Assembly (NCBI GenBank): GCA_038087875.1
Contig: CM075988.1
Location: forward strand, 8,434,001 to 8,498,000
From: Malacoraja senta
Taxonomy: Eukaryota
Length of the DNA: 64,000 nt
Direction of reading: 5' to 3'
Of this stretch, positions 4,291 through 53,900 are shown piece after piece (position 1 is the first letter of the stretch; every line of letters starts with the position of its first letter). The position numbers were made by a program, and so were the translations under genes. The notes under the pieces are model-generated. The model was not told the origin of the DNA. It searched no databases and worked only from the letters and a program-made list of their open reading frames with translations.

Positions 4291-4436
4291 TGGGGTTGGA
4301 GATTGCAACCTTCACGTGGTCCGCCCTGTTTCGACGAATGCCATCAACCCGGTGTGCGCAATCAAATAAGATCAAATAGAACAAGTTGTCCTACAACTTT
4401 AGGCTGTGCACGCCATACGCAAGAAGAAGAAGAAGG
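4291..4436 (+). mobile_element. Short (~145 bp) ribozyme-headed non-autonomous retroposon, copy 1
   Basis: 10-bp TSD CACATACTCT (4281-4290 / 4437-4446); 3' end GCACGCCATACGC(AAG)n; colinear end-to-end with the copy at 45852-45990. Confidence 0.9.
4292..4345 (+). ncRNA. Predicted minimal HDV-like self-cleaving ribozyme (copy 1)
   Basis: P1 GGGGTTG/CCGCCCT (1 mismatch), P2 GATTGCA/TGCCATC (1 mismatch), P3 ACC/GGT, L3 TTCACGT, J4/2 CGAA; folded by eye. Confidence 0.7.
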
Positions 4437-17543: not shown

Positions 17544-18284
17544 GATAGGGGGTGGGGAGAAGAAAGGAAAAAAGGAAAAAGGCGGAGGAGGAGCCGAGGG
17601 CTGGGGGAGGGGAGGAGACAACCAGATGGCTGATGAAGGGGAGGGGACAGCAAGGGCTAGCAGAATTGGGAGAATTCAATGTTCAAGCCCCCAGGATGTA
17701 GACTGCCCAAGCGGAATATGAGGTGCATTTCCTCCAATTTACGGTGTTGCTCGCTGTGGCCATGGAGGAGACCCAGGACAGAGAGGTCAGATACGGAATG
17801 GGAGGGGGAGTTGAAGTGCTGAGCCACCGGGAGTTCAGGTTGGTTATTGCGGACCGACCGGAGGTGTTCGGCGAAACGATCGCCAAGCCTCCGCTTGGTC
17901 TCACCCGCTTGGTCTCCGCTCGGTGAGACCAAGCGGAGGCTTGGCGATCGTTTCGCCAAACACCTCCGGTCGGTCCGCAATAGCCAACCTGAACTCCCGG
18001 TGGCTCAGCACTTCAACTCCCCCTCCCATTCCGTATCTGACCTCTCTGTCCTGGGTCTCCTCCATGGCCACAGCGAGCAACACCGTAAATTGGAGGAAAT
18101 GCACCTCATATTCCGCTTGGGCAGTCTACATCCTGGGGGCATGAACATTGAATTCTCCCAATTCTGCTAGCCCTTGCTATCCCCTCCCCTTCATCAGCCA
18201 TCTGGTTGTCTCCTCCCCTTCCCCAGCCCTCGGGCTCCTCCTCCGCCTTTTTCCTTTTTTCCTTTCTTCTCCCCACCCCCTATC

Positions 18285-18319: not shown

Positions 18320-18518
18320 TATTTCCTTCGCTCCATAGATGCTGCTGCACCCGCTGAGTTTCTCCAGCATTTTTGTGTACCTATCACTTCAAGATTCAAG
18401 ATTCAAGAGAGTTTATTGTCATGTGTCCCAGATAGGACAATGACCTTCAGCACAACAGAATATTGTAGGCATAAATAAATACAGAACAGATCAGTGTGTC
18501 CATACACCATTGAATATA

Positions 18519-20132
18519 CAGTGGCTTGCAAAAGTTTTCATACCACTTGAACTTTTCCACATTTTGTCACGTTACAACCACAAACGTAAATGTATTTTAT
18601 TGGGATTTTATGTGATAGACCAATACAAAGTGGTGCATAATTGTGAAGTGGAAGGAAAATGATACATGATTTTCAAATTTTTTTACAAATAAAAACTGAA
18701 AAGTGTCGCGTGCAAAAGTATTCAGCCCCCTGAGTCAATACTTTGTAGAACCACCTTTCGCTGCAATTACAGCTGCAAGTCTTTTGGGGTATGTCTCTAC
18801 CAGCTTTGCATATCTTGAGACTGAAATTTTTGCCCATTCTTCTTTGCAAAATAGCTCAAGCTCAGTCAGATTGGATGGAGAGCGTCTGTGAACAGCAATT
18901 TTCAAGTCTTGCCAGAGATTCTCAATTGGATTTAGGTCTGGACTTTGACTGGGCCATTCTAACACATGAATATGCTTTGATCTAAACCATTCCATTGTAG
19001 CTCTAGCTGTATGTTTAGGGTTGTTGTCCTGCTGGAAGGTGAACCTCCGCCCCAGTCTCAAGTCTTTTGCAGACTCTAACAGATTTTCTTCCAAGATTGC
19101 CCTGTATTTGGCTCCATCCATCTTCCCATCAACTCTGACCAGCTTCCCTGTCCCTGCTGAAGAAAAGCATCCCCACAGCATGATGCTGCCACCACCATGT
19201 TTCACAGTGGGGATGGTGTGTTCAGGGTGATGTGCAGTGTTAGGTTCCGCCACACATAGCGTTTTGCATTTAGGCCGAAAACGTCAATTTTGGTCTCATC
19301 TGAACAGAGCACCGGTCTCCACATGTTTGCTGTGTGCCCCACATGGCTTGTGGCAAACTGCAAACGGGACTTCTCATGGCTTTTTTTCAACAATGGCTTT
19401 CTTCTTGCCACTCTTCCATAAAGGCCCGATTTGTGGAGTGCACAATTAATAGTTGTCCTGTGGACAGATTCTCCCACCTGAGCTGTGGATCTCTGCAGCT
19501 CCTCCAGAGTTACCATGGGCCTCTTGGCTGCTTCTCTGATCAATGCTCTCCTTGCCCGGCCTGTCAGTTTAGGTGGACGGCCATGTCTTGGTAGGTTTGC
19601 AGTTGTGCCATACTCTTTCCATTTTCGGATGATGGATTGAACAGTGCTCCGTGAGATGTTCAAAGCTTGGGATATTTTTTTATAACCTAACCCTGCTTTA
19701 AACTTCTCCACAACTTTATCCCTGACCTGTCTGATGTGTTCCTTGGGCTTCCATGATGCTGTTTGTTCACTAATATTCTCTAACAAACCTCTGAGGCCTT
19801 CACAGAACAGCTGTATTTATACTGAGATTAGATTACACACAAGTGGACTCTATTTACTAATTAGGTGACTTCTGAAGGCAATTGGTTGCACTGGATTTTA
19901 TTTAGGGGTATCAGAGTAAAGGGGGCTGAATACTTTTGCACGCGACACTTTTCAGTTTTTATTTGTAAAAAAATTTGAAAACCATGTATCATTTTCCTTC
20001 CACTTCACAATTATGCGCCACTTTGTGTTGGTCTATCACATAAAATCCCAATAAAATACATTTACGTTTGTGGTTGTAACGTGACAAAATGTGGAAAAGT
20101 TCAAGGGATATGAATACTTTTGCAAGCCACTG
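18519..20132 (-). mobile_element. Full-length Tc1 DNA transposon (IR/DR type)
   Basis: ~212-bp TIRs (18519-18730, 19921-20132) beginning CAGTGGCTTGCAAAAGT with an inner repeat TGCAAAAGTATTCAGCCCC; TA TSDs; 1614 bp. Confidence 0.96.
18735..19754 (-). pseudogene. Tc1 transposase (DD34E), frameshifted
   Basis: HTH region KPKEH..VRDKVVEKFK, GRPPK, ARRKPLL; catalytic SDETK, QQDN(34 aa)E in SPDLNPIENLW; frameshifts just after the ATG (19752-19754) and near 19250. Confidence 0.93.
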
Positions 20133-20957
20133 TATATATACACACATAAATAAGCATTTGGTATAGAAACAAATAACTGCAGATGCTGGTTTTATACCAA
20201 AGATAGACACAACGTGCTGGAGTAACTCAGCGGGTCATGCTGCCTGACCCGCTGAGTTACTCCAGCACTTTGGTTCCATCTATCACTTGCCAGGCTTTGT
20301 CCTGCTCCTACCTCTATTCCAACTGTATCTGCCTGACTACAATCAGTCTGGAGAAGTGTCCCGACCCGGAACGTCGCCTATCCATGCCCTCCCGAGATGC
20401 TGCCTGATTGGCTCAGTTACTCCAGCATTTTAGTTCAATCCAAATAGTTATACACAATCAGGAACTCCTCAGAAATCCTGACATGCCCTCAGGAAATCCC
20501 TGCAAATAAATACGGATGCATCCTCGGTGACTCTGTGCGAATGTGACATACTTTCCAAAGCAGAACCTCTCCAAAGGTTAAAGATAGACACATATTGATA
20601 GAGTAACTCAACGGGTCCGGCCGCATCTCTGGAGAGAAACGTTTCTGGTGACGTTTCGGGTCGGGACCGTTATTCCCAAACTTCCCAGTACTCTCAGTGG
20701 ACCCCTGAAGTTATAGAGCCAGGTTGCGGTTAAAAAGAATGGAATGCCTCGGAAGGATAGCAAAACCAGGCAAACTCCCAGCAAACTCCCAATAAGAAGG
20801 GTCTCAATCCAAAACGTCACCTATTCTGTTTCTCCAAAGATGCTGGCTGTCCCGTTGAGTTACTCTAGCATTTTGTGTCTATCTTTGAAACTACCGATAG
20901 ATACTTCTACACACCACCAAGGAGTTTCAGCCAACAATGACACATAATCCCAGAAGA

Positions 20958-39315: not shown

Positions 39316-40349
39316 CTCGCATAGCCCAACAATCCTCTGAAAACTCTGTTTCCTTCCAATTCTCATTCCCCTCTCACTTCCTTCACTTGATTGGCAGTTC
39401 TTTTTGCTGAAAGTTCTCCTTCGAAAATATCCTTGATTTTCTATCTCTTCCTTTGAAACTCTACACTTGCCAACAGGTATATGATTCCCATTGCAAGAGA
39501 CAAATTCCAATCCAGAAACCTGACATGTCACGCCATCTTTTGATGCAAGTCTTTCAGGAGTGAACTTTTACCCTGACATTTCCTTTTATGCGCCTCAGTG
39601 CAGCCGCCCGACTTCCAAATGCAAAGCACACACCAGCCTCTTTGAACTGAAAGGCCTGGTGATATTGTTTGTTTCTCCCCCCCCACCATAGCTGAACTAA
39701 TTAGGAGGAAAGGCACGTTCTAGCTCAGCTGAAGTCTCGGGTTGGAATATCTTAAGGAAGTCGGGGAGTGAGGTGAAAATTTCCAGCTGTAGTTTTGACA
39801 GAATTTTTTTTTTTAAGTCCTCCTACGTAATGTGTTTAATTATGTTTAATGGAAAGGCTGAACAATCTTTTTTAAATCTTACTTTTGAATTTTGATAATG
39901 TCTTTCAACTTGAGCCTCATCTGAATCAGGTCTCTTGTTCACCTCTCCTGTTTAAATGTGTACTGAAAGAATTGGCAATTGCACTGGTCGGACTCATACG
40001 TGCGCCTGCCTGTGTGTGCCCACTCATCTATTGCTGTATTTATGTCGTATATAAATGAGGTGACGGAGAGATACACTGTGGGTAGCAGCAAACAATATCA
40101 GTGCAGAATGCTGCAGAATGTCAATTCTTCTTGCCAGTTTTATCTGTTCATTCTTTATATTACTAGTCCACATCAACTATCAAACTAAAATCAAAATCTA
40201 TCAGCAAAGTTAGAACAGAATCCTTCACAACCCCTAACCAGACTTTCTCGTCTACTTTTTACTGCAACCATTTCATATCACTGATATTTATCCTTTTTTT
40301 AACTGTCTAGCTGTAAACTCAATCCATCAGATTGTATCCATATTGCTTG

Positions 40350-40620
40350 AATGTCTGTATGTGTTTATCTCTGTGTCTATAAATATGTAAGTGTAAGTGC
40401 GTGTGCGTGTGAGTGTGCATGCGAGCGTGTATGCGTGCATGTGTATGTACTTGTGTGTGTTAGACTATGAGCAAGTGTCTATGGATGCGAAAATGTGTCT
40501 GTGTGAGTGTGAACGTGTGCTTACCTCTGTCTGCCTTTACATCAGTGTGCATGTCTGTGCATGTGCACTTGTGAGTGACATCGAGTGTAGGTGTGCCTGT
40601 GGTTGTGGAAGTGTGCATTT
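40350..40620. repeat. Degenerate (TG)n-rich low-complexity tract
   Basis: Visible GTGTG/ATGT repeats. Confidence 0.7.
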
Positions 40621-41619
40621 GCTGGATTACTATGTTGTGCATTTCCACAATATAAATGAACTCTTTGAACAAATCATTGATGTTGAGATAAAAGCAGCTA
40701 CAATTCGTACAGTAACTCAGAGAGGACTGAAAATAAAGGTGATTTAATACTCATATTTAACCCAGAGTTTAGATTTCACCCAGTACATGGATGCTGCATA
40801 AAGGGAGAGCGCTGACAAACACAGATCTAGTGTAAAGGAGCCAATGGTCATTGGTGGTCAGAAGACGACAGCACAGCCATGTCTAGCCTAGGCACCCCAC
40901 TCCACCCCACATCTACACATGCACACACTCCATATTCTCCATTTCTGCCCCATCCATTCAATGGGAGGAGCGGAGATCCCTATGCACTGGTCCAGATCCT
41001 GGCATTGCATGTAGCTGAAGGTTGTTTGGAGGCAGGATCTGCCAGGCATTGAGGAAGAGTGACAGTCAAGCATGCCAAGGAGAAAGGGGTGCCCAAGTGT
41101 CAGCTCCCAGGAGGGTGAGGTTTCACTTTGTCTTCCTCTGAAGTCCCTAGTGTGTGTAGGATAGTGTTAATGTGCGGGGATCACTGGTCGGTGCGGACTT
41201 GGTGGGACGAAGGGCCTGTTTCCGCACTGTATCTCTAAACTAAACTAAACCTACCTCATTGAGCCTTTTGCACTTTTTTTCATCTGCACTTTCTCTGCAA
41301 CTGTGACACTATTCTGCACAGTTTACTTTCTGTTTCTGCAGATGTGCAAAACTGTTTTACAGAGTTAATGAAGTACTTTTTAAAATTGCAAAGTAGGAAA
41401 GAAATGAATGTATTAGTATTCAAAGCATGGACTGCAAATCTATGCAATAGATTTAGTATCCTCAGACTCAACATCTTTCTTGTAATCAGTAACCTTGTGG
41501 TTTTTTTGTTCATTGGGTGTCTGCAGATATCGTTATCCAAGCCAATGTTTAATATGTTGTTTTAATTGTACTTGAGAAGGTGGCGGAGAACCACTGCCAT
41601 GAATGGCCATAATAATCAA

Positions 41620-41885
41620 GGACCAGTCTCACCCTGGTCACTCCCTCTTCTCCCCTCTCCCTTCAGGCAAGAGGTACAGAAGTGTGAAAATGCACACCTC
41701 CAGATTCAGGAACAGTTTCTTCCCAGCTGTGATCAGGCAACTGAACCATCCTCTCACCAGTTAGAGCTTGGTCCTGACTAATCTACTGTACCTCATTGGG
41801 GACATTTGAACTATCTTTAATCAGACTTTATCTTGCACTAAATATCATGCAACATAAGTCTTTATTCTTTATCTGTACACTGTAT
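41620..41885 (+). mobile_element. Rex1/Babar-type LINE 3' fragment
   Basis: CACCCTGGTCACTCCCTCTTCTCCCCTCTCCCTTCAGGCAAGAGGTAC...AGGAACAGTTTCTTCCC. Confidence 0.75.
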
Positions 41886-44589
41886 ACATGGGAAATGTAA
41901 AGGACATCCCATCTGACCAGCGCAACAGAATGCTGTTACGTTGTTATTTAGCAGTCAGGTCATTTTTCTTTTCGCCCCTCAGCTACACTTGTACAATCTA
42001 TAATTATGCTCAAAACATGGTAAATATATTTATACAGTGTAAGCCTTGTTATTTTTTGAAAAACTTTGATATACTTAAGATGGAAAAGGCATTGACTACA
42101 ATGCCACTGACTGTGCAGTGCTGAGTTCAATTCTCTCGTGTGGCCTTAACACTGCTGCGCAAAGCTGAACTATGCCCCCATTATCTCTCGGCTAAACACG
42201 TTGTATCACAAAGCAGAATTCATCACAAGAGGATGAAATGATCATTTGTAAAATGTACATTTGGTAGTAAATATACTTAGCTAGCATTTTAAACCAAAGA
42301 CAGAAGCAAAGGTAGGCACATGGATATGGAGGGAATGGATCACGAGGAAGCAGTGGAGATTAGTTTAACTTGGCATCATGTTTAGCAGGAATATTTTGGG
42401 CTGAAGGGCCTGTTCCTGTCCTTGTTCTATGTTTTATTTCACTCCCTCCAAGTCTTTCTAATAGCATCCCATATTTCATGTTTTGCATACTGTATTATGA
42501 CACAGATACAGGCTATTCAACCTCTCAAATCTGTACCAGCATGTTGATTCATCCCATTATCCCTCTAGCTTTCCGTTAAACTGTTCTACTTGCATCTGCA
42601 CGCACAGCTCCCAGATTCTACTCCTCACCTGCACATTCGGGGTAAGGCTGAGGGATCAATTAACCTTCCCACTCACTCATCTTCAGGATGTGAAAGGAAA
42701 CCTGAGCACCTTGAGGAACCAGACACAGTCACAGGGAGAACGTACAAACTCCACGCAGCACCTGAGGTCAGGATTACATACACATCCCTGGTACTATCAG
42801 GGTCCGCGCCATCGTGCCACCCTGACACAACTTGAACCCTAACAAAAGGGACTGGCCTAAGGGATGTCTATTCAGTACTGCAAGCATTCTCTGTCTCTCA
42901 CACTTCACTTGACCAGGACTTAACACAGTGCTCAAAGTGTGTGTGGTCCGACTAAAACAATCCACTTGCTCTAACCTTTATTCAACTGTGTCGACTCTGT
43001 TAGTTCAGTATTCAATTGGCTTTGTTGAATGTTGTTCTGCATTCGTGTTCAGCCCCACACCTGAGACAGAACTAATTTATTTTTAAGATCTCCGTGAAAA
43101 ATCCAGCACACATTGTTATGAGAACGTGCCGAGAATTGCTGTACAAATATGATGTTATGATTCCATGAATATCACTGACAGTAATTTATAGGCAACTGCA
43201 CCTCCGGCTGACCGCTAATGTAATGCAAACAGGGAGAGAAATGCTGAATGTAAATCTAAAGATCAGGAGATAAAGCCCAGTACGGATTATAACAAAATGA
43301 AATACATTGTTGTAGTTGCTCTTGGATCACGCTCAGTTCCAGCAGCTTGAATTGAGTACATTGCGGGGTTAGGCTTCCATTCACCCCATCTATCTGTGTC
43401 CTGTTTCCATGGCGATGTGTTTGCCAGGGCAGAGGCCTAACAGAGACGTTGGTCAACCTGTGGTGAAAATGAAGGCCAACCTCACAGGGCAGGTTGAGGA
43501 CGCACGAACTGGCTGTGATTTTTTTTTCACTAGGTTTGTGACTCCGAAATAATTTTTCAGATCAGACAGCTGCTGGCTGCTTGGAGACCCACTACAGGGA
43601 TATTCAGTAGGCCGGAGAGCCTGCTAGGTTTAAGAGCACTGCTCTCTTGCAGTTCCTGATAACACTTGCCTACTAATTTTGAATGATGGTGTGCGTCGCA
43701 AGCCAATGTGAAGAGAAACAGCCTTCCTAAGTGGCTATTCTTGTAAAGTGCTTCAGATTCCAAAAAAAATAGGTTAGGATCTGAAGGGCTATTGACTCCA
43801 TTAGGGCAGATGCAGCAGCGGGTCGAGGCGTGGTAATGTGCACTGCAGCACACCGTGAGTGAGTTGCACAGGCTTGCGTCTCTATCTGCTGGAGATTAGG
43901 CCGCTAATTAATAAGCTCTTGGGCTCCTCACAGCCGGAATCGAGTATTAATTCAGCTCCTTCGACAGCCGGAGCTGAAATGGGCAGCCGTGATGGGCCTG
44001 TGAACATGCAGTCAGGGGATAGTAATCCACTTAATGCCACAACCATGGAAACCAAAACTCAGAGCGAGGGACACCACAGGAGGTTTCTTTTAAGTCAAAT
44101 AGCACCTTCCCGTTTCCCTCAACTCTTTTCACTGTACCTCAGTACACGTGACAATAAACTAAACTGAAACTGAACTGAACTCCTTCAAATAACCTTTTGA
44201 AGTTGATGAGGAAAACAGATAGGTGCTATTTGACATAAAATAATTTATTTTTGTTACCTTCCCTCAATTCCTCCAAACTTTTTTTCATAATATTTTTTGA
44301 TAACCTTTTTTTCATAATATTTCTCGACCAATCTCAAATCAGCCACCCATGTTGCCATCTACTTTGCTTATTAATCTCTTTATTACTTGTTGCTGGCGAG
44401 ATTCATTTGATGTACTCCTCCACCTTCCTCTCATTATCTAATTCCATATTCTTTCTTTCTAATTCCTGTGCATTTATTTATTTCTTTATTTCCTATGATC
44501 TTTCACAACAAATTCTCCCTCCATTTTCACTAAAAAATATATACTTTTCATCCATCCGCCCGAGTTTTCTCCTGTATCAAGGATGCTAA

Positions 44590-44845
44590 AGGGCCTGTCC
44601 CACTTGGCAATTTTTTTTCGGCAACTGCCGGCATCATATCAGTGTTGCCAAAAGATTTTGAACATTTCAAAATCCAGTAGTGACAATAAAAAGTAGGGAC
44701 ACTTGAAAAAACACCGTGCGTCATACATCATCACGCCACATCACGCCACATCACGTCCCATCATGCCGCAAATTTTTCGGTGACCTGATACATCAGTCAA
44801 TGATGCCGACAATCGCTGAAAAAATCACCAAGTGGGACAGGCCCG
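44590..44845. mobile_element. PIF/Harbinger-type MITE
   Basis: TIR GGGCCTGTCCCACTTGG; TAA TSD (44587-44589 / 44846-44848). Confidence 0.85.
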
Positions 44846-45317
44846 TAACTCTGTTGGTGATCTGGTCCTAGGGGCGGTAGCAGGATTCTGGCCCTTTGTT
44901 CCCCGTGTGAGGCTAACTTCTATTTTCTCCAATACCGATGGTTTAGATTCTGTGGACCCTTTATAATGGTACAACTTGATATCTACAACACTGCTTCCCA
45001 TTTCTCATTCTGGTCCATACATCTCCTTGAATGCTTTTCTATCAGTGACTGAATCAATAGCTGGAAAGGTCACCCTTTTTATACCAATAATTAGTTGAAT
45101 CCAGGATGTCTTACTGAAGGAAATTCAAGGAACTGCAGATGGCCTGAGTCTTGAACGTAACACAAAGTGCTGGAAGAACTCAACTGGTCAGGCAGCATCT
45201 GTGGAGGGAAAGGACAAGATACATTTTGGGACAGGGACCATTCTTCAGACTTCAGTGAACCGAGACGTCGTCTGTCCATTCCCTCCACAGGTGGTGCCTG
45301 ATCTGCTGAGTTCCTAG

Positions 45318-45730
45318 GTATTGACATCCCCACCATCAAAGGGATCTATCGGAGGCAGTGCCTCAAAAAGGCAGCCAGCATGAGCAAGGACCCTGAACAT
45401 GCTCTCATTTCACTCCTGCCATCGGAAAGAAGGCATACGAGTCTGAAACTGTGACGTCCAGATCTAGGAACAGCTTCTTCCCAACAACCATCAGGCCCCT
45501 GAACACTACGAATACTAAATAAGCTCTGAACGACAAACTGTCTTGGTTGTACTAGGGACTTTGGGCTTTGTTTTGCTTTGCACTATGTTTTTTTTTTTTT
45601 TAATGTATTTAACTTATTTTTTGTTTATTACTTTATCTATTGATTACAGTGTTTACAAACCTGTTGAGCTGCTGCAAGTAATAATTTCATTGTTACCATT
45701 TGATATATGACAATAGAACACTCTTGACTT
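45318..45730 (+). mobile_element. Rex1/Babar-type LINE 3' fragment
   Basis: CCTCAAAAAGGCAGCCAGCAT...GGAACAGCTTCTTCCC...TGACAATAGAACACTCTTGAC. Confidence 0.7.
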
Positions 45731-45851
45731 CAGTACCCTGTGTCTAATTGAAGGCCTTCTTTAGGTAAATCTGTTGGGTAAGTAATCTACCTGGAGACTA
45801 GACTATATGCATTGGGTTCAGGTCAGATCTGGCAGTGAATAAGATAGTCAC

Positions 45852-45990
45852 CGGGGTGGAAGACTGCAACCTTCACGTGGTCCGCCCTGTTTCAACGAAT
45901 GCAATCAACCTGGCGTGCACAATCAAATAAGATCAAATAGAACAAGCTGTCCCACAACTTTAGGCTGTGCACGCCATACGCAAGAAGAAG
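45852..45990 (+). mobile_element. Short (~140 bp) ribozyme-headed non-autonomous retroposon, copy 2
   Basis: TSD AAGATAGTCAC (45841-45851 / 45991-46001); 3' end GCACGCCATACGC(AAG)n; same 5' start as copy 1. Confidence 0.9.
45853..45906 (+). ncRNA. Predicted minimal HDV-like self-cleaving ribozyme (copy 2)
   Basis: P1 GGGGTGG(45853-59)/CCGCCCT(45882-88) with G1.U wobble; P2 GACTGCA/TGCAATC; P3 ACC/GGT; L3 TTCACGT; candidate catalytic C45896 in CGAA; essentially no P4. Confidence 0.75.
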
Positions 45991-46240
45991 AAGATAGTCA
46001 CTAAGTCAGGTTTGAACGTCATACGTTCTGTCAGAAGGCTTGCTTCATAATAATTGACCCAAACTGGACCATAGCTTTTATCACCCTTAAAATGGTACAA
46101 CAGGTCCAAGTTTCATCCTTTTAAAATGTCCACCAGTGGAGTTCGCTTGAGGTGCTCAATGGCATACTCTTATTCCTATTTATTTTGTTGTAGTCTTTGA
46201 GAGCTAGTCCATGGCAAGAATATGAAAAGGTAACAGCTCC

Positions 46241-46540
46241 TTTAGACTTTAGAGATACAATGTAGAAACAGGACTTTCGGCCCACTGAGTCCACGCCAAC
46301 CAGCGATCATCACGTACACTAACACTATCCTACACACTAGGGACAATTTACAATTTTCACCAAAGCCAATTAACCTATAAACCTGTACGTCTTTGGAGTG
46401 TGGGAGGAAACCAGAGCACCCAGAGAAAACTCATGTGGTCACATGGAGAAGGTGCAAACTCCGTACAGATAAGACTCCTAGTCGGAGTCCTAGTCGAACC
46501 TGGGTCTCTGGCACTGCAAGTTACCATTGTGCCCACTGTG
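46241..46540 (-). mobile_element. HE1/V-SINE-type SINE
   Basis: Family consensus. Confidence 0.8.
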
Positions 46541-47682
46541 CCTCTCCTGTCCATTTAAAAGATACATTCATAATCTATCTGCACTGAGTTTGGCCTCAAT
46601 ATGCATTTGTAATTACTGATTAATGAATGATTATAATGAGATATTAAATGCACATTTTCATAACTTCCCTTTATTATTTTGAAAGCACGTCTAGTTGATG
46701 ATAAGGTTTTTGACCCCCCGTACACTGTCCCTGCTGATAACAGCATGGCTCTGAGAGACTGATGCAGTTGTTAGAAGCATTACAATTAGTCTCTATGTCT
46801 CTGAGTTGCGGCAGTGAAAGTTTAAATCTCGGTTACTGTCCCGTGCCGTGTGGTGGGGTTGCCAAAACGATGGAGCCTTTCCTAGAGTTTGTCACATAGG
46901 GACAGTACACTGGCACAGCTAATGGAGCTGCTGCCTCACAGCTCCAGCGGCCTGGGTTCAATCCCGACTTCGGGAACAGTTTGTGGTGTTTACGTATTAT
47001 TCCTTGGACAAGCTGGGCTTTCTCAGGTGACCAGCCTCTTCCCACATACTACAGACATCAAAGTGGTAGGCTATTTGGCCACTGTAGATGTCCTGGGTAT
47101 GTAGGTGAGAGGTAGAATCTGGGGGTGAGTTGGTGGGGAATGTGGTGAGAATATAATTGATCAGGGTAGAATTAGTGTAAAAGTGTGGTGTTGATAATTG
47201 GCATGGACCAAGGGCAGCACAGTGGTGCAGCGGTAGAGTTGCTGCCTTACAGCGACAGAGACACCTCCCCGCACATCTAATTTTCTCCCACTGCCCCTCT
47301 ATGTATATTTGCCTAGTTTTGTGTTTTTCTCCTCAGGAAGATCATCGGGGATTAACAACCATTATTGTCCTTTCATCACCATGCGTCATTGAATTTACAT
47401 TTACAAAAGGCAGGTACTCTTACATTCTTTGCAAAGTGTCCGGATGATCTCCTGGATCAGCAAGGACAAACTTGTTAGGGATCAGGTCTTGGTTAATGGA
47501 ATGAATATAAATGGGAAATAGATGGGCTACATAGACAAGGTGGGCCAAAGGGCCTTTTTCCCACAATGCATCCCTTTGTTCTCCAACTCCTCTTTCTTCA
47601 ATATTAGAGCCTTAGAATCAGGCCTTAGAGATACAGGGCGGAAACTGTACCCACGAGTCTGTGCCGACCAGCGATCACCCAG

Positions 47683-49050
47683 AATATCAGTGGTGGGGAA
47701 GATGTACATCTGCGCACATTTGGATAGCAGTAACAGGATCGGTCCGAGTCAGCATGGATTTACGAAGGGGAAATCATGCTTGACTAATCTTCTGGAAATT
47801 TTTTGAGGATGTAACTAGGAAAATGGACAAGGGGAGAACCAGTGCATGCAGTGTACCTGGACTTTCAGAAAGCATTTGATAAGGTCCCACATAGGAGATT
47901 AGTGGGCAAAATTAGGGCACATGTTATTGGGGGTAGAGTGCTGACATGGATAGAGAAGTGGTTGGCAGACAGGAAACAAAGAGTAGGGATTAACGGGTCC
48001 CTTTCAGAATGGCAGGCAGTGACTAGTGGGGTACCGCAAGGCTCCGGTGCTGGGACCACAGCTATTTACAATATACATCAATGATTTGGATGAAAGGATT
48101 CAAAGTAACATTAGCAAATTTGCAGATGACACAAAGCTGGGTGGCAGTGTGAACTGTGAGGAGGATGCTATGAGAATGCAGGGTGACTTGGACAGGTTGG
48201 GGGAGTGGGCAGATGCATGGCAGATGAAGTTTAATGTGGATAAATGTGAGGTTATCCACTTTGGTATCAAAACAGGAAGGCAGATTACTATCTAAATGGC
48301 GTCAAATTGGGAAAAGGGGGAAGTATAACGGGATCTGGGGTCCTTGTTCATCAGTCGATGAAAGTAAGCATACAGGTAGAGCAGGCAGTGAAGAAAGCGA
48401 ATGGCATATTGGCCTTTATAACAAGAGGAGTCGAGTATAGGAGCAAAGAGGTCCTTCTGCAGTTGTACAGAGCCCTAGTGAGACCACACCTGGAGTATTG
48501 TGTGCAGTTTTGGTCCCCTAATTTGAGGGAGGATATTCTTGCTATTGAGGGAGTGCAGCGTAGGTTTACAAGGTCAATTCCCGTGATGGCGGGACTGTCA
48601 TATGCTGAGAGAATGGAGCGGCTGGGCTCGTACACTCTGGAGTTTAGAAGGATGAGAGGGTATCTTATTGAAACATAAAAGATTGTTAAGGGTTTGGACA
48701 CGCTAGAGGCAGGAAACATGTTCCTGATGTTGGGGGAGTCCAGAACCAGGGGCCACAGTTTAAGAATAAGGGGTAAGCCATTTAGAACAGAGACGAGGAA
48801 ACACTTTTTCTCACAGAGAGTTGTGAGTCTGTGGAATTCTCTGCCTCAGAGGGTGGTGGAGGCTGGTTCTCTGGATACTTTCAAGAGAGAGCTAGATAGG
48901 GCTCTTAAAGATAGCGGAGTCAGGGGATATGGGGAGAAGGCAGGAACGGGGTACTGATTGGGGATAATCAGCCATGATCACATTGAATGGCGGTGCTGGC
49001 TCGAAGGGCCGAATGGCCTACTCCTGCACCTATTGTCTATTGTCTATTGT
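47683..49050 (+). mobile_element. CR1 LINE, 5'-truncated RT pseudogene + 3' UTR, inserted into a minus-strand SINE (47624-47680 + 49049-49265)
   Basis: Frameshifted ORFs QHGFTKGKSCLTNL, YLDFQKAFDKVPH, FADD, RPHLEYCVQFWSP; (TATTGTC)n tail. Confidence 0.93.
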
Positions 49051-50098
49051 ATACTAACACTATCCTACACACTAGGGACAATTTTACAACTTGCCAAAGG
49101 CAATTAACCTACAAACATGTACGTCTTTGGAATGTGGGAGGAAACCTGAGCACCCGGAGAAAGCCCACGTGGTTATGGGACGAATGTACAAACTCCATAC
49201 AGGCAGCACACATTGTCAGGATTGAACCCGGGTCTCTGGCAGCAACTCTACCGCTGCGCCACTGTCATACAGCACAGAAACAGGTCCTTTGGCCCAACTC
49301 CCTCATGCCGTCCCATCCAAGCTTTTTCCATGTGCCTGCGTTTGGCTGATAACTCTTTAAACCTTTCCACTAAAATTCTAACATTTTCTCAGCGCTGCCG
49401 AAAAGTGTCTGCCTTGAAATGCTAATTCTGTTTTTCTCTCCCCGGAAACTGGCTGACCTGCTGAGATTTCCTCTTTTTATTGCAGATTTCTAGCTCCTGG
49501 GCTATTAATCCCTTCCCCTCTGTCAGCGGTGCTTCAAAGCTTTGCAGCTCCACTCTGCAGGCAGGTCAAGGATATCGCAGTGTGCCCCTGATTGAAATGC
49601 AGGAGCTAATGCGACCTCAAGGAAGAAGAAATCCAAAGATTTATGCACAGGCCTGTTCAGAAAAGAATATCCGGATTAAGGAACTGAGGCAGGTAGCATG
49701 AGCCAGGATAGAGCTCAGCCCTGATCTAACTGAATGATAGAACACACAATGAGGGTGCTCCTGAGCAGAATGACAATAACCTCATGATTACTGTAACTGC
49801 TTGCCTTCACCCATGCCAAACATAGCCCAGATGCCATTACAACTTTTGCATCCAGTGGCATCTGTCACTCTGTTTTCCACACACGTAAATTAATTTCAGC
49901 AGCTAAAGCATACACTTCTACCCTGCTCACTCACAATTACAAGTTTGACAGGTTCACACATTCCGGGAACGTGCTTCAATACCGATTATGCTGTATCTGT
50001 ATAAAAATAATTACCTTCCGATGTAAACAGGTTATGCGTACTTGATCACGGTTGGAGTCCCTCGAAACCGGAATTCCAACTTTGACTGGGTCACACAA

Positions 50099-50385
50099 GG
50101 GAGGTACGGTGGTGCAGCAGTAGAGCTGTCTTACAGCGCCAGAGACCCGGGTTCGATTTTAACTACGGGTGCTTGTCGGTACGGAGTTTGTACCTTCTCC
50201 CCGTGACCAGCGTGGGTTTTCTCGGAGATTTTTTGGTTTCCTCCCACGCTCCAAATACGTACAGGTTTCTTGGTTAATTGGCTTGGTATCCATGTAAAAA
50301 ACTGTCTCGCTGGTCGGTCGGTCGGACTGGGTGGGCTGAAGAGCCTGTTTCTGCGCTGTATCTCTAAACTAAACTAAACCTAAAT
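50099..50385 (+). mobile_element. HE1/V-SINE-type SINE
   Basis: Family consensus, (TAAAC)n tail. Confidence 0.85.
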
Positions 50386-50659
50386 AAGGTTCGAGGAGAG
50401 AAATTTAAAAAAAAACAGCCTGAAAATCTCAATGAGCAAGATTGTTAGAACACTTGCTGTGGTCCGGATCATAGCATTAGTCTGGGAATGCTGGCAATCT
50501 CTTGCAATGATCCAGTCCTCCATGCTGAATCAACCAATTCTGTTGCAATTGTTATTCTTAAGAAGGCTTGGTCAAGCTGTAGAACTGAACAAGAAGATCA
50601 ATCATCTGTTTATTTCTGCAGAATATGAAGATTAAAGGCTGACCCAGTGAAGGATAGTG

Positions 50660-50980
50660 TAAAACACAAAGTGCTGGAGTAACACAGCGGGACAGGCAGC
50701 ATTTCTGGAGGACATTTATAGGTGACCCTTCGGGTTGGAACCCTTCTTCAGACTGAGTATAGTACGCGTGGGGGGGGGGGGGGTTGAGGAAAAAGCTGGA
50801 TATGCGGTGAGGACGGGACAAAGCCTGGCAAGTGAAAGGTGGGTACAGATGAGGGGTGTCAGAAGTAACTGCAGATGTTGGTTTAAACCGAAGAGACACA
50901 AAAAGCTGGAGTAACTCAGCGGGACTGGCAGCATCTCTAGAGAGAATGGGTGACGTTTTGGGTCGAGACCCTTCTTCAGC
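50660..50980 (-). mobile_element. Two tandem PLE pLTR units
   Basis: Two copies of GCTGGAGTAAC..CAGCGGGAC.GGCAGCAT...CCCTTCTTCAG. Confidence 0.75.
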
Positions 50981-53900
50981 AGATGGGGTGGACAAGGGAT
51001 TTGCAAGTTGTTCCCAAGTGTATGTCATTATTTACAGGGAATCTTTGAGAGTCTGCCTTTGTACTGTTGGGGGTTTGTGAGTGTGCCTGTATTTGTAAGT
51101 TATCTGTGAGAATGTCCCAGTGTAAGGAATGCCTCTGAATGTCAGCATTTACAGGGCAAGTCTCAGTATCTATAGGGAGTCCCTGAGAGCACTGTAGTAT
51201 TTGTACGTGGTGTCTGTGTGTCTGGACAAAGGCTAGAGATGAAAAGAAGACAAAAGTGTGTTATGCAAGGCAAGGCATGTCTTCCAGAGATTGTCCCTAG
51301 TGTGTAGGATACGAAACTGGGATAACATAGAACTAGTGTACGGGTGATCATTGGCCAGTGTGGCTTTGGTGGGCTGAAGGGCCTGTTTCCACGCTGCATC
51401 TCTTCCAGAGATGTTGTCTGACCCACTGAGTTACTCCAGAAATTTGTGTTTTACTAGAGATTCCACCATCTGCAGTTCCTCCTGAATCCATTTTGCTGAA
51501 GGATGCTGGGAGTTAATGGATATAACCAGCTGCTCATGCCAACCCTCTCAGAACAAGTCTTACCAACCTACATAGGGGAACTGAACGTGGCTGTAGCTAG
51601 TGCATCAGGTGAAGATGAGCATGAAGCGGTGAATAGCACACCACAGAGAGAGGCCCTTCGACCCACACTGTCTGTACCCAATATCATGCCAAGACCAACT
51701 CATACAATCAAACCTTTGGGCGACTAAGCGGCGCAGTGGTGAGATGTTGCCTTACAGCACCAGAGACCCAGGGCGCTGACTGTATGGAGTTTGCACGTTC
51801 TCCCTGTGACCGCGTGGATGGAGCTACATTGTAACTCTAAAGGGAACTAACTGTCTATTTTATGGAAACCTATTGTCTCCCTCAAAGCTCCCCCTTCCAG
51901 TCTAGCATCAAAGTACATTTTGCTCCTTGCGCCACATTAATATCAGGCTAATGCAAGGTTGCCATGGAGATATGAATGCCAAATCCGTTGATTATTAGTG
52001 AACTCCCACCTCTGGAAATTAATTTTCCTTTTAATAGGCATGTTTAACTGGGCAGATTCAGCTAACATCAAATGAGGAGCTAAATGGCAAATATATTATT
52101 TAAGCAGAATTATTTCAAATAAACATATTTCAATCCTATTTTAATGAGCTGCCGACTGGAGCTGAGGTGTACACACAGTACGTGTCCTGCCACCGGAAAC
52201 CAATGATCTCCTCTGCAGACCCATCTTGTGGAGATCCTACTGCGATTAAGCACCACCCATGGGATGCAAGTACTGTCTGAGCTTTCCATTAGGACGTTTT
52301 CCCCACTGTACATCTCAATTTAGAGCTGGCATGACTCAATGTAATCTTCCCCCTTAATAGCTTTTAAAAGATCTGTTTCGATGTTCTTGTCAGGTCAGAC
52401 CTGCTGATATTTAGAACGATGATATTCTTCAACTGCTCTTCTCACGGTTCCTCTCCTCTCCATCCCCTCCCCAACCACCGCCAAGAACAAAGGGGAACCT
52501 CGCCGGGGGGGGGGGGGGGGGGACTGCCAAGATTGAAGGGGGACAGACACAAAAAGCTGGAGTAACTCTGCGGGACAGGCAGCATCTCTGGAGAGGAGGA
52601 ATGGATGACGTTTCGGCTCGAGGCCCATCTTCAGACTAGTTAAGGATAAGGGAAGCGAGAGATATAGACGATGATGTGGAGAGATAAAGAACAATGAATG
52701 AAAGATATGGCCAGAGGGGGAGCAGCGAGAGAGGGTGGTGCAGAACTCTCGTCGGAGAGAGGAGGAGAACTTCTTCGAAGTAGACATATCTTGAGGAGAT
52801 TTTGCAGTGGAGCAGACGAAATGTGTAGGAAGGAACTGCAGCAAGGGGGACCTGGTGTGAAGGGCCACCTGTAGCTACGTGCAACCTCTGACATGGTTCG
52901 TCACTACGCCAGAAACATGGCGACTCTTTGTGTACTGCCTAGGTGAGGTCTGTTGTATGATTTCACCGGATTGCATGTAAAATAAAGTATTTCACTGAAC
53001 GCAGACACATGCGACAATGAAGTGTCATTAAATCATTGAACCTTCCTTTCAGAGACATGCACCAAGCATTATGGATCAGCTTATTGTCTGTTGGAAAGCC
53101 AATGATTAATCAAAGGCAAGAATCTTTCTCAGTGACTAACTATCAATGAATGAATGAATGATACTTTAACACAAGTGACATGTCACAATGGAATTCTTTG
53201 TTTTGCATGCCATACACAAGTAGGGACAGATTTGCCACGTACAGTTCGCTGGCAAAGTTACAAAGTGTTCAATGCGGTCCCAATGATCCCTCTTCATTCT
53301 TGGCGGAACAAGAACAGAAGCCAATTAACTTACAAACCAACACGTTTTCGGGATGTGGGAGGAAACAGGAGACCCGAATGAAGCCCATGCCCTCTCAGGG
53401 AGATCATGCAAACACCACACAGACCGCACCGGAGGTCACGATCGAACCCAGGTCTTTTGTGCTGTGAGGCAGTTCTACCAGCTACACCACCTATCACTTT
53501 TTCATTTTCACTAGTCCAATTTGGATCCGTACTTAAAACATTTCCATCAATTTTATTTAGATATTTTCAGTCAGCTAGTCTCAAATGTCGATGGGTCTAT
53601 CTTCGTACTGTATGTGTCTCGCAGCCTTTCTGTTTGCTTTTATATCTGTCTGTATCTGCCCTTCTCTTTATTTAGCATTGCTTGGGTTGCTTGTCTTCTC
53701 TCTTTAACTGTTCACGTGTTTGCCTTTGTATCTGTCTCTCTTCGATCTCCCTATAGGGTAAATAGACCAAAGTGTTCCCAGTGGACAGCCCCAAGACAGC
53801 TCAGGTCAAGGAGTCGTCACTGCGGTATTGTGGCCTTATCTACGGCCTGCACGCCATTGAAATGTGCCTGCCTGCTGGGAGCACAGAATCTGTGGCTTTA

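Follow-up and report, generated by a model that had tools for sequence, protein, structure and literature searches.

The 138-nt insert described here, which lies in a window of 64,000 nt (the whole stretch of DNA analysed), is by its sequence an internally deleted LINE derivative (a SIDE, a class already described) and not a SINE. Its head is predicted to be a minimal, self-cleaving HDV-like ribozyme without a real P4, and it carries two complementary arms that derive from opposite ends of the parent LINE, 3 kb apart. We consider it quite probable that the element descends from a Vingi LINE, that the ribozyme frees its RNA at G1 and that the paired ends are recognised by the LINE protein before copying. 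The parts of the element, together with a second copy in the window, are as follows.

45853-45990, + strand: insert, the whole element (138 nt), between exact 11-nt target duplications
45841..45851, + strand: left target-site duplication (exact 11-mer), separated from G1 by an additional C at 45852
45991..46001, + strand: right target-site duplication, 11 nt, exact match to the left copy
45853..45906, + strand: HDV-like (CPEB3-type) ribozyme fold without a real P4 (descriptor, covariation and Rfam; cleavage predicted)
45853-59 / 45882-88, + strand: P1, with the G1.U wobble and a further U.G at pair 5
45860-61, + strand: J1/2
45862-68 / 45900-06, + strand: P2, with the private mismatch C45864
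45869-71 / 45879-81, + strand: P3
45872-78, + strand: L3
C45874-G45889, + strand: P1.1
45890-95, + strand: 6-nt linker in place of P4
45896-99, + strand: J4/2, with the candidate catalytic C45896
45853..45934, + strand: stretch inherited from the parent LINE's 5' end (82 nt, 86.6% identical to the LINE copy L152 at its head)
45911..45921, + strand: 5' arm, 11 nt complementary to the 3' arm
45935..45953, + strand: short middle at the deletion joint (direct reading), holding the 5' half of a 7-bp hairpin that is damaged here
45954..45981, + strand: stretch inherited from the parent LINE's 3' end (final ORF codons, stop, 3' arm, terminal motif)
45966-45976, + strand: 3' arm
45976-45981, + strand: terminal motif
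45982..45990, + strand: (AAG)n tail
4292..4433, + strand: second family copy in the window, 93% identical, with a 10-nt target duplication and mismatches in P1 and P2

An earlier, sequence-only reading of this DNA had assigned P1, J1/2, P2, P3, L3, G45889, the linker and C45896, all of which are present where it placed them. The insert, described there as flanked by target duplications and devoid of a tRNA head and Pol III boxes, is bounded by exact 11-mers and contains no tRNA and no A- or B-box match (45853-45990), and the cleavage site predicted within 1 nt of the left duplication is separated from it by the single C45852. Without a tRNA-, 5S- or 7SL-derived head with Pol III boxes, the element falls outside the strict definition of a SINE. 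The P1 of this copy had also been ranked as the best preserved; however, better ribozymes than this one exist in the family. C45864 breaks one P2 pair, and C45947 and C45953 weaken the internal hairpin. C45864 is private to the window copy, and reads from a related organism have T at this position in 196 of 197 and 121 of 121 cases. Judged from this private P2 mismatch, the ribozyme of the window copy is probably impaired. The short middle (45935..45953) resembles a local duplication produced where the deletion was joined. Elsewhere in the window, two inverted repeats were observed, one of 358 nt (17548-18279, 93% complementary, arms 16 nt apart) and one of 218 nt (18514-20137, 97%), which are probably DNA-transposon or fold-back elements.

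The parent LINE was reached with a pattern that excludes in-register heads and exposes tails downstream of an ORF end (550 matches). The tail of the exposed copies follows the end of an ORF with a CCHC-type motif, and a walk upstream was then made. A near-full parent copy (L186:3375-6460) is ~3.1 kb long, broken, and contains APE and RT. Comparison of the short element with the LINE showed 86.6% identity over the first 82 nt and up to 100% over the last 38 nt, which, tail included, are 100% identical to those of three LINE copies. The parent is a compact single ORF with APE and RT, as in the Vingi clade, whose elements were originally named Ingi. The best of the relatives listed for L186 is an intact protein of 1019 aa (P0001, 72%). 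No RNase H was found in four pieces of L186, three scanned relatives or the 120 listed homologues; RNase H does occur in two outgroup elements. In an RT tree that omits fragments shorter than 140 aa and contains no named Vingi, Ingi or RTE proteins, 14 rows, in which the parent joins other elements devoid of RNase H, form one clade (100/99) separate from the Nimb, L2-like, CR1-like and RNase-H-bearing rows. The compact APE and RT organisation without RNase H fits a Vingi-type LINE as defined in the available part of PMC13708176, and by eye the sister heads look like the 5' ends of published Vingi elements, which favours Vingi over RTE.

Since the parent LINE shares both ends with the short element, the latter is a SIDE. 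The independent SINE-like family with a LINE-like tail proposed in the sequence-only reading thus gives way to a derivation of both ribozyme and tail from one LINE through internal deletion. Its suggestion that an Ingi/Vingi-group LINE mobilises the element agrees with the presence in the genome of a Vingi-type LINE with both ends, and the 3.1-kb L186-type LINE (first ~82 and last ~40 nt shared) is the autonomous element that it had proposed to search for. Several distinct deletion joints were found among the copies, which points to multiple origins; the short derivatives likely arose more than once. Nimb LINEs of the same genome offer another explanation, in which a SINE-like RNA of independent origin is mobilised by them, and Nimb copies indeed have a stem followed by an (AAG)n end. 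However, although the (AAG)n tail is shared, the similarity to Nimb does not extend past this microsatellite, and a different LINE, apart from Nimb in the tree, has both ends, which refutes Nimb as the origin; we regard this explanation as very improbable. A parent search via PF14529 gave Nimb, L2-like and CR1-like elements, not the parent. At least three Nimb-type LINE families were observed (L080, L067, L069, L078), with open frames of up to 1277 aa and a stem followed by an (AAG)n tail.

Searches of the genome with the CPEB3 ribozyme model (RF00622) gave at least 60 matches; 39 of the 60 listed lie above the 35-bit cut-off, with scores of up to 64.2. The 30 matches fetched represent five further families (A-E), which, like the arm pairing and the inverted head captures described below, were absent from the sequence-only reading. 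Family A (L236-L244) is a young full-length Vingi-type LINE of 3.1 kb, ~97% identical, with a P4-bearing head that scores up to 64 bits; the nine fetched copies are broken or have a frame of unchecked intactness. The heads of families B, C and D carry P4. Family E (L226, L228, L232-L235, L359-L370) is a second short P4-less element of ~170 nt with a 12-nt end stem and an (AAG)n tail. It has 939 exact motif matches, and 11 of 12 unselected copies are of its commoner form, in which P1 is 6 bp long.

An HDV descriptor, composed after the fold was known, matched the window once, at 45853, and matched nothing in 300 dinucleotide shuffles (38.4 Mb). The descriptor is blind to family E, to atypical heads (e.g. 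L283) and to mutated copies, and descriptor heads occur in only 3 of 80 metagenome loci, further heads being recognised by eye. Among the 4,227 families of Rfam, only CPEB3_ribozyme (24.5 bits, E 1.2e-4) and HDV-F-prausnitzii (12.7 bits) matched the window copy, both in the same register as the fold proposed earlier. For the undamaged copy L003, HDV_ribozyme (21.7 bits) and HDV-F-prausnitzii are the top two of three matches, also in register. The search with HDV models suggested in the sequence-only reading thus supports the register, but all scores are below the gathering cut-offs (24.5 vs. 35 for CPEB3_ribozyme, 21.7 vs. 50 for HDV_ribozyme and 12.7-14.4 vs. 44 for HDV-F-prausnitzii). The ribozyme matches need short stretches as query, and Rfam gave only chance microRNA and snoRNA matches over 40000-52000 of the window. 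Rfam returned no ribozyme for 11 metagenome loci, one of which, L297, is matched by the descriptor. The absence of P4 claimed earlier holds in that a 6-nt linker is present without a real P4; however, the Rfam model pairs U45891 with A45895, leaving a one-pair vestige. In a pseudoknot-free model, the 54-nt head alone folds no better than shuffles (z -0.35).

Covariation was analysed in 17 distinct heads from the six families of the genome and one metagenome locus (L209 in, L297 out); the rows are related, and those of families A-E were chosen by the CPEB3 model. In this set, 92.5% of the cells are paired, and 11 of the 18 pairs change on both sides across families. The double-changed cells number 61 vs. 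17.5 in shuffles (none of 500 reaches the observed count) and at most 8 when the alignment is slid, in support of the proposed HDV-like fold with covariation in P1, P2 and P3; two of five covariation measures are no better than shuffles (55/500 and 332/500). The G1.U wobble is present in 11 of the 17 rows, and the other six include E rows and 5'-truncated copies. The conserved L3 is present, and the C-G pair of P1.1 occurs in all 17 rows and, being invariant, gives no covariation signal. The catalytic C at the start of J4/2 (C45896) is at least 90% conserved in the alignment. In the metagenome relatives L293:3117 and L297:3296, a second P1.1 pair C-G was observed where the genome heads have U.U. 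An HDV-like head with an atypical L3 was also observed at L283:290-361, ~300 nt from the contig start, where both Rfam and the descriptor missed it.

Cleavage at G1 in vivo is likely for the source copies and less so for the window copy. Transcription would occur by read-through, which we hold slightly more probable than other routes together. In one poly(A) RNA run from a related organism, 201 reads cross G1 into the flanks; the same run shows no pile of read starts, a weak negative given the mixed orientation and age of the copies. A 1.5-2-fold strand excess was observed in this run, from a library of unstated strandedness. Reads across G1 would also be produced if the ribozyme had decayed after the loss of P4 and no longer cut, the 5' end being set by an internal Pol II promoter at G1. 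A precedent is Pr77 of trypanosomes, a 5' stretch that serves as internal promoter and ribozyme (PMC4035085, in the part available), and the single Watson-Crick pair of P1.1, the absence of P4 and the scores below the Rfam cut-offs point in the same direction. However, all the helices and the catalytic C are kept although the sequences of P2 and P3 are replaced relative to the sister families, and family E is likewise P4-less with its core kept. Moreover, P4-less forms cleave in vitro, as described in PMC10879173, and a promoter role is compatible with cleavage. We consider a decayed ribozyme improbable.

The 5' ends of the family coincide with the predicted cleavage site. In a sample of 30 copies chosen by the tail alone (two of them with common flanks), 22 start at position 1 and five at positions 2-4 (27 of 30 at 1-4). 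Of the remaining copies, one has an internal deletion but by eye still extends to G1, and two are truncated. Target duplications of 7-14 nt flank 26 of the 30 copies and end no more than one base from G1 in 21 of the 26. Loose read ends stack at 45853 in four of four runs (three organisms), and the 3' ends are scattered. The check for stacking at G1 put forward in the sequence-only reading is thus positive in both data sets. The marks of target-primed reverse transcription are present (target duplications, a repeat tail and many copies).

A DNA search of the genome gave 1,992 candidates, and the 40 that were scored are 93-100% identical. A 22-nt tail motif has 3,106 exact matches genome-wide and a 35-place core motif has 3,129, all with the catalytic C of J4/2. 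Over the initial 60 Mb of contig 1, 25 of 88 tail matches overlap with core matches, which suggests a family of ~11,000 copies, a rough figure that assumes that tail and core matches are independent. At 45977 and 45981, about one-quarter to one-third of the reads differ (T>C and C>A), giving the motif of families A, B and D; read from its sequence, this variant terminal motif is a subfamily outside the tail-pattern count. Subfamily differences are confined to unpaired or tolerant sites (J1/2, the linker, the second base of J4/2 and A/G opposite U in P1). At L109 and L022, two or three family copies are nested or head-to-tail within 1.5 kb.

The 3' 84 nt of the window copy fold into a stem between 45911-45921 and 45966-45976 (z -3.2, and z -4.3 for L003). 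In all ten end pairs analysed, an arm of 8-12 nt just 3' of the ribozyme complements an arm just 5' of the tail, and nine of the ten, full-length LINEs included, beat shuffles. The same layout occurs with unrelated arm sequences in families A-E and the metagenome relatives. The shuffles that reach the observed duplex energy number 31, 0, 2, 1, 133, 15, 3, 0 and 5 of 2000 for nine end pairs, and 0 of 2000 for the tenth (L283), which was examined afterwards and pairs in the same register. The end pair of family C is no better than shuffles (133/2000, 289/5000). Five end pairs combine ends from different copies of one family, and the families are related and hence not independent trials. L279, full-length by protein match with an unrecognised head and its 3' end cut off, was left out.

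Pair counts in the fixed register are 9-12 on the diagonal vs. 1-5 against the 3' ends of F, A and B, 4-9 against the GU-rich 3' ends of C and E and at most 7 against D. In the energy matrix, a foreign 3' end out-pairs the family's own in three of nine rows. Internal windows that pair as well as the true end number 6/245, 4/249 and 1/247 in three full-length elements. A constant 5-7 nt separates the 3' arm from the tail in the six families of the genome. All five parsed LINE-linked heads have C59 and A61, and the short copies have C59/G61 and then T59/G61; C59T and A61G each add a stem pair. We moderately favour a role of the end stem in template recognition by the LINE protein. In the supplement of PMC5786205, SINE2-1_AMi, whose 3' part bears the label 'unknown', shows by eye a ribozyme, a short spacer and the arms as a hairpin, and its terminal motif is by eye that of families A, B and D. 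In the literature searched, a scope outside which Repbase, Dfam and patents lie, no paper on end pairing in Vingi was listed.

Heads are also found at the junctions of LINE copies. Among 29 distinct copies, two are near full length and most are simply 5'-truncated. One of the 29 shows a direct junction, at position 80, between the head and an internal point, and in four an inverted head adjoins a 3' part that starts 340-1,500 nt further on. The other rearranged copies comprise two contiguous twin-priming inversions, one inversion short of the head and one otherwise rearranged copy. Two more inverted heads and another direct join come from a further set of 30 loci, duplicates included. The non-contiguous inverted heads total six, and five of these start at positions 75-83, directly after the arm. 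Target duplications surround at least four inverted heads, and three have 2-4 nt of microhomology by eye. Several heads of families B, C, D and A and two metagenome loci likewise have a head opposite an RT fragment. These samples were chosen by similarity, some with only 1.5 kb of flank. No account of truncated LINE copies with an inverted head at the junction was found in the literature searched.

The explanation that we prefer rests on the observed sharing of the LINE ends, target duplications, stacking at G1, covariation and end complementarity. A read-through transcript of a source copy would be cut at G1. The arms would pair, and the Vingi protein would bind the stem and the terminal motif, with the (AAG)n tail as its priming site. 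Stacked 5' ends and target duplications, both of which are observed, would then result from copying that runs as far as the cut end. The stem would keep the head beside the priming site, where the second DNA strand could prime on the held head just past the arm, giving the inverted heads, and a jump of the enzyme to the held head could give the direct joins and the short families.

The same element could be a Vingi SIDE with an active ribozyme whose protein reads the 3' end only, the arms serving RNA stability, control of LINE translation or avoidance of ribozyme misfolding. The plain 5' truncation of most LINE copies, which makes the head needless at the insertion site, and the cross-family pairing that is sometimes as strong as own-family pairing are consistent with such a protein. 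R2/R1 hybrid SIDEs need just a ribozyme and a 3' end and move with an unrelated one, as described in PMC3414825, so end pairing is no general need. However, the stem is improved in a short non-coding family, in which there is no translation to control, the captured heads have breakpoints just past the arm, and the distance of the 3' arm from the tail is fixed in six families. Recognition of the 3' end only is thus possible but rather unlikely, and recognition of the paired ends remains the preferred explanation.

If this panhandle is real, it would account for the internally deleted derivatives of Vingi, for the capture of heads, often inverted, and for the presence of both UTRs on gene-writing templates. 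According to PMC5786205, internally deleted non-autonomous derivatives arise from no clades other than RTE, Ingi, Vingi and R2, 'for unknown reasons', and a conserved 5'-3' stem would be a concrete and cheaply testable answer to this clade bias in Vingi. Vingi-1 of Anolis is in use for gene insertion from two RNAs, in which the template carries both UTRs and ~25% of the insertions are truncated (PMC13708176, in the part available). A natural minimal template of 138 nt and a predicted head-inversion by-product would be relevant to the design of this system and to the analysis of its junctions. The origin and function of P4-less HDV-like ribozymes are called undetermined in PMC10879173, and the two P4-less families, for which exact motif matches number at least 3,129 and 939, would provide cases from an animal in which such ribozymes have a role. 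Host transcripts, too, could be affected by inserts that potentially cut themselves and number in the thousands. The joint reading, that the panhandle of Vingi RNA is a protein-bound signal, that P4-less ribozymes have a eukaryotic home with a job and that the CPEB3 ribozyme is a domesticated Vingi head, seems to us evenly balanced between true and false.

Elements of this kind have been described before. HDV-like ribozyme heads on internally deleted elements are reported for R2 (PMC3414825) and L1Tc/ingi (PMC4035085), some non-autonomous SINEs use HDV-like ribozymes (PMC6765202), and non-autonomous Vingi derivatives are known, such as those of Vingi-1_EE (PMC5786205). In the available parts of these sources, SIDEs and bipartite non-autonomous LINEs (R2 SIDE, NARTc, RIME, SIDER and the Vingi-1_EE derivatives) likewise have joined LINE ends, no Pol III head and target duplications, and the R2 and L1Tc/ingi SIDEs share the 5' HDV-like ribozyme with the 138-nt element. 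The latter differs in its length of only 138 nt, its thousands of dispersed copies, its P4-less head and its complementary arms, which those parts do not mention for the known SIDEs. The parent LINE resembles Vingi clade LINEs, which encode APE and RT in a compact single ORF and lack RNase H, as described in PMC13708176. The 5' ends of Vingi-2_Gav, Vingi-4_Crp, Vingi-2_SPur and Vingi-1_BF in the supplement of PMC5786205 show by eye the same HDV-like fold, and the L3 of three of these four is by eye that of the 138-nt element or of family C.

In the literature searched, which leaves Repbase, Dfam and patents outside its scope, no paper was listed on a P4-less HDV-like head in an animal retroelement or on a Vingi origin of CPEB3, and the available parts of PMC5753468, PMC10919898 and PMC3391268 contain no link between Vingi and a ribozyme or between Vingi and CPEB3. 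Minimal HDV-like ribozymes are ~99% phage and often lie at tRNA 3' ends according to PMC10879173, whose search, including human, mouse and protist genomes, gave hits only in bacteria in the part available. The drz-Mtgn-1 and theta ribozymes described there lack P4 and have the catalytic C first in J4/2, as here. The present element shares the absence of P4 with theta ribozymes, but it contains no tRNA and lies in a 1.94-Gb genome, whereas theta ribozymes cleave at the 3' end of a phage tRNA. The CPEB3-type sister heads with P4 suggest that P4 was lost here separately from the theta ribozymes. The mammalian CPEB3 ribozyme (Rfam RF00622) has the same L3, single P1.1 pair and J4/2 pattern as the 138-nt element; however, it is a single-copy intronic RNA with P4, whereas the 138-nt family is a mobile-element head without P4. 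That RF00622 fits Vingi-type heads with scores far over its threshold suggests a possible origin of the CPEB3 intron ribozyme as a domesticated Vingi 5' end.
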